IMG/VR virus record: IMGVR_UViG_2711768069_000003
Span: 1 to 4,041 of that record
Direction: 5' to 3' (one strand)
Length of the DNA: 4,041 bases
DNA from: a virus
Lineage: Duplodnaviria; Heunggongvirae; Uroviricota; Caudoviricetes
Of this stretch, positions 1 to 3,000 are shown piece after piece; within the stretch, counting starts at the first letter, position 1, and the number at the start of each line of letters is the position of its first letter. A program made the position numbers.

Positions 1-3000
1 GTTGCATGGTGCCGGGAAGAAGCATCCGTTATCGCCGGACTGCCAAACGTCAGCGAGCTGGTTGATATGGTTTACGAGTATTGCCGGAAGCGAGGCCTGT
101 ATCCGGATGCAGAGTCTTATCCGTGGAAATCGAACGCGCACTACTGGCTGGTTACCAACCTGTACCAGAACATGCGGGCCAATGCACTGACTGACGCGGA
201 ATTACGGCGCAAGGCCGCAGATGAGCTTGTCCATATGACTGCGAGAATTAACCGTGGTGAGGTGATTCCTGAACCAGTAAAACAACTTCCTGTCATGGGC
301 GGCAGACCTCTAAATCATGTTCAGGCTCTGGCGAAGATCGCAGAAATTAAAGCTAAGTTCGGACTGAAAGGAGCAAGTGTATGACGGGCAAAGAGGCAAT
401 TATTCATTACCTGGGGACGCATAATAGCTTCTGTGCGCCGGACGTTGCCGCGCTAACAGGCGCAACCGTAACCAGTATAAATCAGGCTGCGGCTAAAATG
501 GCGCGGGCAGGAATCCTTGTCATTGATGGTAAGGTCTGGCGAACGGTGTATTACCGGTTTGCTACCAGGGAAGAACGGGAAGGAAAGGTGAGCACGAACC
601 TGATTTTTAAGGAGTGTCGCCAGAGTGCAGCGATGAAACGGGTATTGGCGGTATATGGAGTTAAAAGATGACCATCTACATCACTGAGCTTGTAACAGGC
701 CTGCTGGTAATCGCAGGCCTTTTTATTTGAGGAAGAGTAATTGGAGGCTTTAAGAAATGAGTACGATAGCTGAGCTTGTCAGGGCTAATTTTCGTGAAGA
801 GTTGGTGCGTTGGTATCGGTATCGTTCATCGTCCAGTTTGCCGCTTGATGAGTTGTATGAGCATTCACCTGCCGCACGACGCTATCCGCGTGACCGTGTT
901 CTTCGACGGTTGTTCAAACTCAACAATGAGTTTCAGCGCAACAGAATTATCCGGAGTCTGGATTTTAAGTGAAGGAGTGAGCATGAGCGACCTATCATTA
1001 ACCCAGCCAAAGCTAAAAGAATGTCCGTTTTGCGGCGGTAATGCTCGTCTGTGGGTTGAGGCCGGAATAAATATTGATGTGTGGGGCTATGCAGAATGTG
1101 ACCTCTGTGAAGCCAGGGGGGCATGGGCACCATCAGTTGCTGCGGCGGCTGAAAAATGGAACCGGAGAGCAGGAGATGAAGCAAGCCTTTCTGCTTCGCA
1201 ACGAAGCAATCAGAAATAACGCCATAGACGCCATTCTCTCACTACCCATCGACGACAAGTCACCCCACGAAGTCCACGTTAAAGAACCCAAGCGCAGCAA
1301 AGCGCAGAATGACCGTATGTGGCCGATGCTGAACGATGTTTCGCGTCAGGTGCTATGGCATGGTCAACGGCTGGCGCCGGAAGACTGGAAAGACCTGTTC
1401 ACTGCCCTGTGGCTTAAGACCAAAAAACTGGAGCAACGAAGTGTGCCTGGTATCGACGGTGGCGTTGTCATGCTTGGCGTGCGTACCAGCAAAATGCGGA
1501 AGGCCAGCATGACTGAGCTTATCGAAATCATGTTCTGGTTCGGCTCAGAGCGCAACGTGCGGTGGAGTGATGACTCCTGGCGAGAGTATGAATGGTCACA
1601 ACGAAAAGGGAGAGCTGCATGACTATCAAATCAAATACGCCATCACACGACAAGGACTGCTGGCAAACGCCGCTTTGGCTTTTTGATGCACTGGATATTG
1701 AGTTTGGATTCTGGCTGGATTCAGCTGCGAGCGACAAAAATGCTCTGTGCGCTCACTGGCTAACTGAGGCCGACGACGCGCTAAATTCTGAGTGGATAAG
1801 CCACGGTGCAATCTGGAATAACCCACCGTACAGCAATATCAGGCCGTGGGTGGAAAAAGCCGCTGAGCAGTGCATACAACAGCGACAGACGGTAGTTATG
1901 CTTGTGCCAGAGGATATGTCAGTCGGATGGTTCAGCAAGGCTCTGGAGAGTGTCGACGAAGTTCGCATTATCACTGATGGACGGATTAATTTTATCGAAC
2001 CATCGACAGGGCTGGAGAAGAAGGGAAACAGCAAAGGCTCCATGCTGCTGATTTGGCGACCGTTCATCAGTCCTCGACGAATGTTTACTACTGTATCCAA
2101 AGCGGCATTGATGGCGATCGGGCAGGGCGTCAGGATGGCGGCATGAGGCGACAGCGAAGAAGTATCACCGACATCATCTGCGAAAACTGCAAATACCTTC
2201 CAACGAAACGCTCCAGAAATAAACGCAAGCCAATCCCAAAAGAATCTGACGTAAAAACCTTCAACTACACGGCTCACCTGTGGGATATCCGGTGGCTAAG
2301 ACATCGTGCGAGGAAAACAAGGTGATTGACGCGATGATTTATTCGGGGCTATATTCCTCACGCGCCAGCAAAATCTGGCGTCGGGATTAGCACCCCGGAT
2401 ATCGAAACGGTGCATAACCGCGCTGGCGGTTTTTTTATGCGCTAAGCACAGTCACATTCGCGATTTATGGCGGGCTGTGTGGGGGAGCCGAAAGGCTCGC
2501 CGGATGTTTCGACCGGTAGTGCTAACCCCGCACAGTTCGCCACCACGATGATTAGCACCTGACGGTGGCGAGGTAAAAATTATCGAAACGCGAGGTCATT
2601 ATGGCTGTTCAAATTTCTGTCGAAAACCTTTCCCCTGTTACCTATAACCAGATCCCCGTAATTACTACTGAACTGTTGGCTCACCTTTACGGCACAGAAG
2701 CTATTCGTATTCGCCAGAATCACCACGAAAACAAAGGTCGTTTCATTGAGGAAAAACACTTCTTCAAACTTGAAGGTGAAACTTTACGTGAGTTCAAGCA
2801 CAGAGTAGCTTTTAACTACTCTGTGAAAATTGCCCGTAACGTTCGCTCCCTCATCCTCTGGACAGAACGAGGCGCAGCCCGTCACGCAAAAATGCTCGAA
2901 ACCGATCAGGCTTGACGTTATAGGTCGTTACTTGTAGATTTATCTTTGTGAGGCGTCAGAACCTCTCTAAAGCGGACAAAACCAACCCCGTCAGTGTTGG

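Follow-up and report, generated by a model that had tools for sequence, protein, structure and literature searches.

DUF7301 and Lar-family Genes between tR2 and ninB of a Lambdoid Phage: Neighbors Rather Than Proven Partners

Introduction

Two small genes lie between the tR2-type terminator and ninB in the phage DNA considered here, and the question they raise is what each encodes and whether their adjacency reflects a shared function. The segment spans positions 757–1219 of a 4,041-nt stretch of a Caudoviricetes genome (IMG/VR record IMGVR_UViG_2711768069_000003), the whole of which is called the window below. An earlier note, made from the sequence alone, had described it as an insertion between tR2 and ninB. 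Two genes do lie there, but comparison with lambda does not show a simple insertion. On the upstream side, near-identity to lambda spans ren and tR2 and fades by ~737–740, and tR2 (an intrinsic terminator at 697–730 on the plus strand, for which a terminator scan gives an 8-bp GC-rich stem and 8-nt loop at 697–720 and a T-run to 730) is the last lambda-like element before the cassette. Downstream, ninB (1176–1622, plus strand; PF05772, E = 2.1e-48), encoding an Orf-family recombination mediator, is a non-lambda allele whose product shares only 44% identity with lambda NinB, and a gene for a phage Dam-type N6-adenine DNA methyltransferase (1619–2146, plus strand; PF05869, E = 7e-65) occupies the lambda ninC position as part of the same mosaic block. 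The low identity of NinB and the presence of dam in the place of ninC thus indicate a different mosaic block rather than a clean insertion into lambda.

Both cassette genes are already known and catalogued, with the RefSeq names “DUF7301 family protein” and “Lar family restriction alleviation protein,” and the family scores of both ORFs are far beyond chance. Hundreds of Escherichia coli prophages of the Shiga-toxin and related types carry the pair; the cassette occurs in complete genomes of E. coli at a frequency of ~10% and in Stx phages of clinical importance (933W, Sakai, Min27). The findings overturn nothing in current understanding. The explanation that we favor, with some reservation, is that 757–1219 holds two separate accessory genes, the first encoding an independent, probable binder rather than a dedicated partner of Lar.

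The DUF7301 Gene and Its Family

The first gene (757–972, plus strand) is preceded by a GGAGG Shine-Dalgarno sequence (743–747, plus strand), read 9 nt 5′ of the ATG at 757 and kept in all five aligned alleles. Its identification draws on two family matches, on the pattern of substitutions by codon position, and on an AF2 model of the product. The earlier note had reported a 71-aa ORF with 14 Arg at 757–972, as ORF reading, residue count, and family match all confirm; by count the protein also has 2 Lys and 9 Asp plus Glu, for a pI of 10.8. The view in the same note that this protein has no recognizable family no longer holds, as it matches PF23975 (DUF7301) with E = 3.8e-26 and 91.4 bits against a cutoff of 27, the match covering 1–64 of a 65-position profile, as in a full-length member. 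It also matches phrog_1785 (E = 2e-33) and is the equivalent of orf69 of phages ST64T and L. In these Salmonella P22-like phages, as in BTP1, the homologue is ~40% identical, belongs to the DUF7301 family, and shares with the window protein the core RY..S.LP..E..P..PRDRVL; its gene also stands in the same place as the window gene, between the replication genes and ninB.

All 39 aligned relatives match both PF23975 and phrog_1785. Members are strongly basic proteins of 65–85 aa from Enterobacterales lambdoid prophages, with a pI of 9–12 in 38 of the 39, the exception being a 75-aa allele (P0008) with a pI of 5.8. The family core, RY..SSSLP..E..P..Y(R/P)RDRVL in the protein alignments, is present in the 71-aa protein as R21, Y22, S24–S26, L28, P29, E32, P38, Y43, P44, R45, D46, R47, V48, and L49. 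Its most conserved motif, YPRDRVLRRL (codons 43–52; 883–912, plus strand), was located from protein alignments together with a DNA alignment of five diverged E. coli alleles, across which the DNA around 883–912 is almost invariant, only two wobble sites varying. This core is a mosaic joint between 5′ alleles A or B and 3′ alleles 1 or 2, all four combinations of which occur. In a single Logan contig (P0031), a YdaS/Cro-like N terminus is joined to the C-terminal half of DUF7301; this one occurrence is treated here as a recombinant or an assembly chimera.

Relatives appear sparse in other genomes. A protein-pattern scan of species-representative genomes found no DUF7301 relatives, and a 65-nt degenerate DNA pattern found three stretches in such genomes, of which the one examined, in Erwinia endophytica, is a true member; the small number of matches suggests that the family is rare outside a few enterobacterial lineages.

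A complication for annotation is that some phage records carry a long “Lar-like” protein of 141–147 aa, begun at TTG 776 and running across the DUF7301 gene. If this were the real product, the 71-aa ORF would not be a gene, a reading to which we give almost no credence. The long ORF alone is called in the RefSeq re-annotations of phages 2851 and 1717, and in the window the long Lar frame is open from 770. Against this, in a diverged allele the long frame is closed 15 nt 5′ of the Lar ATG, which effectively refutes a start at TTG 776, and each of the two genes has a Shine-Dalgarno site of its own. The DUF7301 frame, moreover, is kept down to 25–40% identity across the 39 aligned members, and its substitutions relative to one diverged allele fall 18/8/27 by codon position; the dominance of third positions identifies the 71-aa frame as the coding frame. 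The earlier note had allowed that this frame might not be conserved among related phages; it is conserved and open in many of them. The spurious long annotation should be corrected.

The Lar-like Gene

The second gene (983–1219, plus strand) encodes a 78-aa protein from the ATG at 983. Its Shine-Dalgarno sequence, AGGAG (973–977, plus strand), is read 5 nt 5′ of the ATG and directly 3′ of the DUF7301 stop codon (970–972), with an intergenic gap of 10 nt. At its other end the gene extends 44 nt past the ninB start at 1176, so that its final 14 codons are read within ninB in a different frame. Family assignment is given by PF14354 (Lar_restr_allev; E = 1.8e-10, 41.3 bits against a cutoff of 28.6), TIGR03655 (62.3 bits against 39.6), and phrog_599 (E = 3.8e-38).

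That this is a Lar-family zinc ribbon, as first proposed from the sequence, is borne out by comparison with Lar of the Rac prophage (RalR, E. coli K-12 b1348), to which it is 38% identical over 53 aa. The two proteins have in common a CPFCG...CxxCE zinc ribbon with both CxxC pairs and a WN(K/R)R motif, C14/C17 and C39/C42 of the window protein aligning with C9/C12 and C30/C33 of Rac Lar, and W59-N60-R61-R62 with W-N-K-R. Several features nevertheless set them apart. The window protein is not a RalR orthologue, as it scores 26.7 bits on the NCBIfam RalR equivalog model NF007260, for which the cutoff is 113; unlike Rac Lar, it has a 14-aa tail read from within ninB; and its gene lies in the nin region 5′ of ninB, whereas Rac lar lies between recT and rcbA. 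RcbA itself, the 69-aa neighbor of Rac Lar, was considered as a DUF7301 relative and rejected as unrelated (hhalign probability 0.2%).

Further complicating a simple “anti-restriction” label, Rac Lar has been redescribed as the DNase toxin RalR (PMC4041452). Its antitoxin is an sRNA, and no DUF7301 gene stands beside it. In the window, comparison with Rfam at E ≤ 1 gave no sRNA match within 600–1300, although RalA itself may not be an Rfam family, and a weak promoter-like site on the minus strand (973–946) is within chance expectation. In the literature, lar of Stx phages was found mentioned only as an annotation (PMC3430580).

Distribution and Gene Neighborhood

How often the two genes occur together bears directly on whether they are partners. 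Of 5,426 complete E. coli genomes, 543 carry the DUF7301 allele of the window, as do 183 phage records, among them 933W, VT1/VT2-Sakai, and Min27. DUF7301 is the more frequent of the two genes both in phage records (183 versus 119 with Lar) and in E. coli genomes, where it is found at 818 places versus 682 for Lar. In Stx2a phages an unrelated 60-aa ORF takes the place of Lar, with the joint 8 nt past a shared ATG. The 75-aa DUF7301 alleles and phage Dewey have no Lar, and the next gene is of the YbcN/NinB (Orf-family) type with overlapping stop and start. Phages L and ST64T likewise lack Lar and have the order orf69-orf86-orf98-ninB, so that orf69 is followed by orf86 and orf98 where the DUF7301 gene of the window is followed by Lar.

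More distant loci extend this pattern. Across 52 IMG/VR loci from the YRRDRVL clade, ~30 kinds of gene directly follow DUF7301 (among them DNA polymerase III theta-like, DUF1367, DUF551, YbcN, and NinB). Lar is downstream in none of the 52 and within 2.5 kb in two, both times upstream (two lineages, 0.9–1.5 kb), as judged with a Lar HMM built from three seed sequences, by which very distant Lar relatives could be missed. Of the 47 loci whose flanks are long enough, 23 have NinB or YbcN no more than 2.5 kb downstream, and a relative with 37% identity has NinB as its next gene. E. coli, phage Dewey, and Erwinia share the order DUF7301-(Lar)-NinB/YbcN-Dam, and the full order DUF7301-Lar-NinB-Dam is repeated only in E. 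endophytica, at ~40% protein identity. Elsewhere DUF7301 is found in two non-nin contexts, integrase-proximal operons without NinB, in which an MT-A70 gene is adjacent or nearby.

The tight linkage to Lar that the earlier note had offered as an argument for shared function is therefore dispensable. As DUF7301 is so often found without Lar, the link is facultative and the two genes are neighbors rather than proven partners, and experiments on DUF7301 should regard it as a module in its own right rather than a component of a Lar system. Given the Erwinia order and the two lineages with an upstream Lar, some functional connection with Lar may nevertheless exist.

Structure and Candidate Roles of DUF7301

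In the AF2 model (pLDDT 89.6), helices at 3–25, 30–35, and 44–69 of the 71-aa protein form a hairpin, and the conserved residues (RY..SSSLP..E..P..YRRDRVL) cluster at its tip. A hairpin of this kind may resemble Arg-rich helix-loop-helix binders of RNA or DNA, such as the N-terminal hairpin of HIV-1 Rev and Rop-type hairpins, in its two-helix antiparallel model, its helically spaced hydrophobic residues, and the many Arg in both helices. It differs from them in that the conserved residues lie at the tip rather than along an arginine-rich helix. Database comparisons add little to this picture: PF23975 is the sole Pfam match of the 71-aa protein and the sole recurrent one across the 39 members at E ≤ 1, NCBIfam and PADLOC scans gave no match for DUF7301, its profile matched no PDB sequence, and structure comparison of the model gave no significant or informative match. 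No papers on DUF7301, PF23975, or phrog_1785 were found, and the phage L and EHEC phage papers do not discuss the gene.

The absence of a catalytic motif, cysteines, and a membrane segment makes a role as a binder most likely. DUF7301 would then be an accessory factor of the delayed-early operon that binds nucleic acid or protein, as its charge, fold, lack of catalytic features, and DNA-transaction neighborhood suggest, the nucleic-acid-binding step being argued from composition and context.

How such a protein might act has been considered in several ways. Small proteins of phages or plasmids, such as lambda Ral, Ocr, and ArdA, relieve type I restriction and form the functional class toward which the earlier note pointed. 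DUF7301 could itself be an anti-defence protein, a small basic hairpin that would bind a host immune nuclease or sensor and so block it. This is unlikely, though it would account for a patchy distribution (the gene is accessory and absent from lambda, and phage 1717 has two paralogues 0.7 kb apart), for a fast-diverging middle segment whose A and B alleles differ strongly between identical flanks, and for a location among anti-restriction genes (Lar, Dam), the neighbors including Lar and orphan methyltransferases, namely Dam two genes downstream in E. coli and Erwinia and MT-A70 in the two non-nin contexts. Methyltransferases are common in these regions, however, so the association may be background; DUF7301 matches neither PADLOC nor any named anti-defence family; and Ocr and ArdA are acidic DNA mimics, whereas DUF7301 is strongly basic. 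Ral is encoded elsewhere in such phages, e.g. L098. An extension of this proposal that we consider doubtful is that DUF7301 represents a previously unrecognized class of small Arg-rich hairpin effector, the tip of which (SSSLP/YRRDRVL) would bind a host nucleic-acid-handling or immune component in a Lar-independent anti-defence or host-takeover role.

Partnership with a neighboring gene is less probable still. One such role would be to assist or modulate, as an added subunit or otherwise, the Orf-family mediator (NinB or YbcN) that usually comes next. DUF7301 does lie directly 5′ of the YbcN-type genes that it overlaps and of NinB in the 37%-identical relative, and 23 of the 47 distant loci have such a gene nearby; yet lambda encodes NinB with no DUF7301 beside it, half of the loci and both integrase-proximal contexts have no such gene nearby, and the adjacency may reflect only the fixed gene order of nin regions, so that this role seems improbable. 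Even lower is the probability of a functional pair with Lar, in which DUF7301 would serve, for example, as protein antitoxin or regulator of a RalR-like DNase. The toxin activity of Rac Lar, the adjacency repeated in Erwinia, a gene order, sizes, and 10-nt spacing that resemble type II toxin-antitoxin loci, and the juxtaposition of a basic protein with a Lar protein that by count has slightly more acidic than basic residues would all fit such a pair. Against it stand the lack of conservation in either direction, many DUF7301 genes having no Lar and Rac Lar no DUF7301, and the low score of the window protein on the RalR model. In Min27, moreover, Lar is frameshifted by a run of G7 instead of G6, with DUF7301 intact, and in the EDL933 Stx-phage record (933W) the Lar match is likewise in two pieces.

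A Probable Independent Module at the Edge of a Variable Slot

In the favored explanation of two separate accessory genes, the DUF7301 and Lar-like genes would be co-transcribed at the start of the nin region in an Stx-phage-type lambdoid prophage, with expression from pR predicted to require N-mediated read-through of tR2. Its homology to Rac Lar/RalR makes the Lar-like protein a candidate for relief of type I restriction, which it may bring about by nicking or damaging DNA and so setting off the restriction-alleviation response of the host itself. DUF7301, for its part, would bind nucleic acid, or else an acidic protein that handles it, in the early steps of replication, recombination, and DNA modification. 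It would constitute an independent module that bounds a highly variable slot on the upstream side, and of this slot Lar is probably one of several interchangeable occupants; this interchangeability, together with the independence of DUF7301, argues against a dedicated partnership with Lar. The slot that separates DUF7301 from ninB, at which small accessory genes are exchanged, is also a reasonable place in which to seek other host-interaction genes.

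Organization of the Early-right Region

The window belongs to a lambdoid prophage, of the Stx-phage type, and covers its early-right region (replication to nin). It comprises the C-terminus of replication protein P (1–384), ren (381–671), a tR2-type terminator (697–730), a 71-amino acid ORF (757–972), a 78-amino acid ORF (983–1219), ninB (1176–1622), a Dam-type methyltransferase (1619–2146), ninE (2143–2325), and two antirepressor-type genes (2601–2915 and 3181–3855). All of the elements described in an earlier note on this DNA, which concerned the genes between tR2 and ninB, were found where it had placed them. 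In alignment with lambda, near-identity spans ren and tR2 and decays at ~737–740, in agreement with the proposal that lambda-like sequence ends after the terminator. The further reading of a clean two-gene insertion into lambda fails, however, as the downstream ninB product is only 44% identical to lambda NinB and dam occupies the ninC position of lambda. The region is a mosaic block of another kind rather than lambda with two genes added.

Smaller variations surround the terminator. A tiny hydrophobic ORF of 20 amino acids (MTIYITELVTGLLVIAGLFI; 668–730), overlapping the stop codon of ren, takes in the tR2 hairpin as coding sequence; in the PhiR12 phages TGG replaces TGA, and the equivalent ORF has 30 amino acids and is annotated NinA. 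In many Stx phages there is an additional insert of ~395 nucleotides, absent from the window and the PhiR12 phages, with a 92-amino acid ORF between tR2 and the DUF7301 gene (AU5Stx1, 2143–2421 of record L002). A Pfam scan of the AU5Stx1 ORF gave no match at E ≤ 0.01; the 92-amino acid genes placed equally in records L086 and L091 carry PF26207 (Phage_phiTE_015).

Two Real and Already Catalogued Genes

Both ORFs are real genes. Each is preceded by a good Shine-Dalgarno site, 10 nucleotides separate them, and the second overlaps ninB by 44 nucleotides. The 71-amino acid protein is as Arg-rich as described (14 Arg, 2 Lys, and 9 acidic residues; pI 10.8). Although the earlier note recognized no family for it, the protein belongs over its full length to Pfam DUF7301 (E = 3.8e-26) and to phrog_1785 (E = 2e-33). 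When 1.84 billion representatives were searched exhaustively with a profile, 46 relatives were recovered, and the open frame is conserved in 38 aligned relatives with 25–85% identity to the window protein. Substitutions at codon positions 1/2/3 relative to a diverged Escherichia coli allele number 18/8/27, and it is extremely improbable that this ORF is not a gene. The second product scores above the curated thresholds of Lar_restr_allev and TIGR03655, which bears out its assignment to the Lar family. Some records give instead a 141-amino acid “Lar-like” protein starting at TTG 776; this frame does not stay open in the diverged allele, where it closes 15 nucleotides upstream of the Lar ATG, so that the longer annotation is an over-extension.

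The DUF7301-Lar cassette is already catalogued and widespread. DNA at least 99% identical occurs in the PhiR12 phages, VT1-Sakai, AU5Stx1, JLK-2012, and dozens of Stx1a phages, and 183 phage records encode the DUF7301 protein, among them 933W, VT2-Sakai, BP-4795, 2851, 1717, and Min27. Among 5,426 complete E. coli genomes, 543 carry the DUF7301 allele (818 places) and 486 the Lar allele (682 places). RefSeq names the products “DUF7301 family protein” and “Lar family restriction alleviation protein”; lar of Stx phages was taken up as early as 2012, by annotation only (PMC3430580), and a literature search on DUF7301, PF23975, and phrog_1785 found no paper. The Stx2 phage 1717 has two DUF7301 paralogues 0.7 kb apart (L108, 2201–2416 and 2883–3095), one ST64T-orf69-like and the other identical to the window protein.

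Linkage of DUF7301 and Lar

Tight linkage to Lar was the main rationale of the earlier note for a candidate anti-defense role. A neighborhood survey, the check which that note had proposed, did not bear out this rationale: the link is common within one E. coli clade, yet it can be dispensed with. In Stx2a-converting phages an identical DUF7301 gene and the first 8 nucleotides of the Lar ORF are followed by an unrelated 60-amino acid ORF and a lambda-type ninB. The 75-amino acid alleles (P0008 and P0027) and phage Dewey lead directly, through an overlapping stop/start, to a YbcN-type gene of the Orf family (NCBIfam PRK09741) and then dam, without Lar. The Salmonella phages L, ST64T, and BTP1 have the order orf69 (the DUF7301 member), orf86, orf98, ninB; by Pfam, none of the three genes after orf69 is Lar-like. 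Members that are more remote come after replication genes of the DnaB or DnaC type or lie in integrase-proximal operons adjoining MT-A70 methylases. In 52 IMG/VR loci of the YRRDRVL clade, the immediate downstream gene takes ~30 different forms, including a DNA polymerase III theta homologue, DUF1367, DUF551, YbcN, and NinB. Of the 47 loci with enough flank, 23 have an Orf-family gene no more than 2.5 kb downstream, and Lar is present in only 2 of the 52, both times 0.9–1.5 kb upstream. The sole independent repeat of the window order, in Erwinia endophytica (DUF7301, Lar-like at 51.1 bits to TIGR03655, NinB, Dam), would fit an old syntenic block in which the loss or replacement of Lar comes easily. 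DUF7301 and Lar are accessory genes that can be separated from each other, and both are co-transcribed downstream of tR2.

Mosaicism and the Slot before ninB

In a DNA alignment of five alleles, the DUF7301 gene falls into four segments. The 5′ end is conserved and the middle strongly diverged (alleles A and B); next comes the conserved core for YPRDRVLRRL, within 880–913, where variation is confined to two wobble positions. The 3′ segment (alleles 1 and 2) goes together with the gene that follows it, allele 1 being found with Lar or orf60 and allele 2 with YbcN. All four combinations of A/B with 1/2 occur, which makes the conserved core a joint for recombination. One 3.2-kb Logan contig encodes a 68-amino acid protein (P0031) in which a YdaS/P22-Cro-like helix-turn-helix N-terminus is joined to the C-terminal half of DUF7301 exactly at the start of the invariant YPRDRVL core; it arose either through natural recombination at this joint or as a chimera of assembly.

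“Lar” takes its last 14 residues from sequence at the 5′ end of ninB. In phage L, the unrelated orf98 (L107, 2473–2769) has the same 44-nucleotide overlap and the same ASQRSNQK tail: any gene in the slot before ninB runs into a fixed out-of-frame stop inside ninB. In the Stx2a phage Stx2_6804 (L109, 1809–2901), the lambda-type ninB is itself apparently split, its N-terminal part being followed by a 200-amino acid ORF with HNH-endonuclease-like motifs that ends in the lambda NinB C-terminal KARWGDRAA, which suggests a homing-endonuclease-type insertion within the gene.

Predicted Functions

By analogy with Rac Lar, the Lar-like protein would relieve type I restriction. This analogy is qualified by the newer description of Rac Lar as RalR, a toxin with non-specific DNase activity under control of the sRNA RalA (PMC4041452). 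The window protein fails the RalR equivalog model. A run of six G residues (1116–1121) lies within the Lar gene; Min27 (L110) has seven, with a resulting frameshift, and the EDL933 Stx-phage (933W) record gives the same two-piece tblastn match. The break could be a real pseudogene, variation in a slippage-prone tract, or a sequencing error.

For DUF7301, AlphaFold2 with a 39-sequence alignment predicts a confident helical hairpin (pLDDT 89.6) of helices 3–25 and 44–69 joined by a short helix (30–35), with conserved residues at the turn end (Arg-21, Tyr-22, Ser-24–Ser-26, Leu-28, Pro-29, Glu-32, Pro-38, Tyr-43, Arg-45, Asp-46, Arg-47, Val-48, and Leu-49). A pI of 9–12 is common to 38 of the 39 aligned members, the exception being P0008 (pI 5.8) because of its acidic tail. 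No cysteines, hydrophobic segment, or catalytic motif were found, and fold and sequence searches brought up only coiled-coil hairpins of a generic kind, if anything.

The sequence does not point strongly to any one function. The protein is most likely a non-enzymatic binder whose basic hairpin tip would engage nucleic acid, or an acidic nucleic acid-handling protein, during early replication, recombination, or DNA modification. Our estimates for specific roles are rough and mutually overlapping: nucleic acid binding specifically is a tentative possibility, and an anti-defense effector is unlikely. An accessory factor to Orf-family proteins is less likely again, and a partner or antitoxin of Lar is the least likely of these.

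Antirepressor Region

Strong Rfam matches within 2349–2547 and 3058–3141 (isrK, 76.6 bits; c4-a1b1 targets, 50.6; C4 antisense RNA, 75.1; and a second sRNA-Xcc1-type element, 75.7) are placed upstream of the two ORF6N antirepressor-type genes, whose expression looks to be under antisense control in the style of P1 immI or Gifsy-1 IsrK. A 104-amino acid ORF6N-only protein (2601–2915) precedes a full 224-amino acid ORF6N and P22_AR_C antirepressor (3181–3855), and the two genes share an 88-nucleotide direct repeat, 90% identical (2827–2914 and 3398–3485), suggesting a partial duplication or recombination remnant of ant in which each copy has its own upstream sRNA element.
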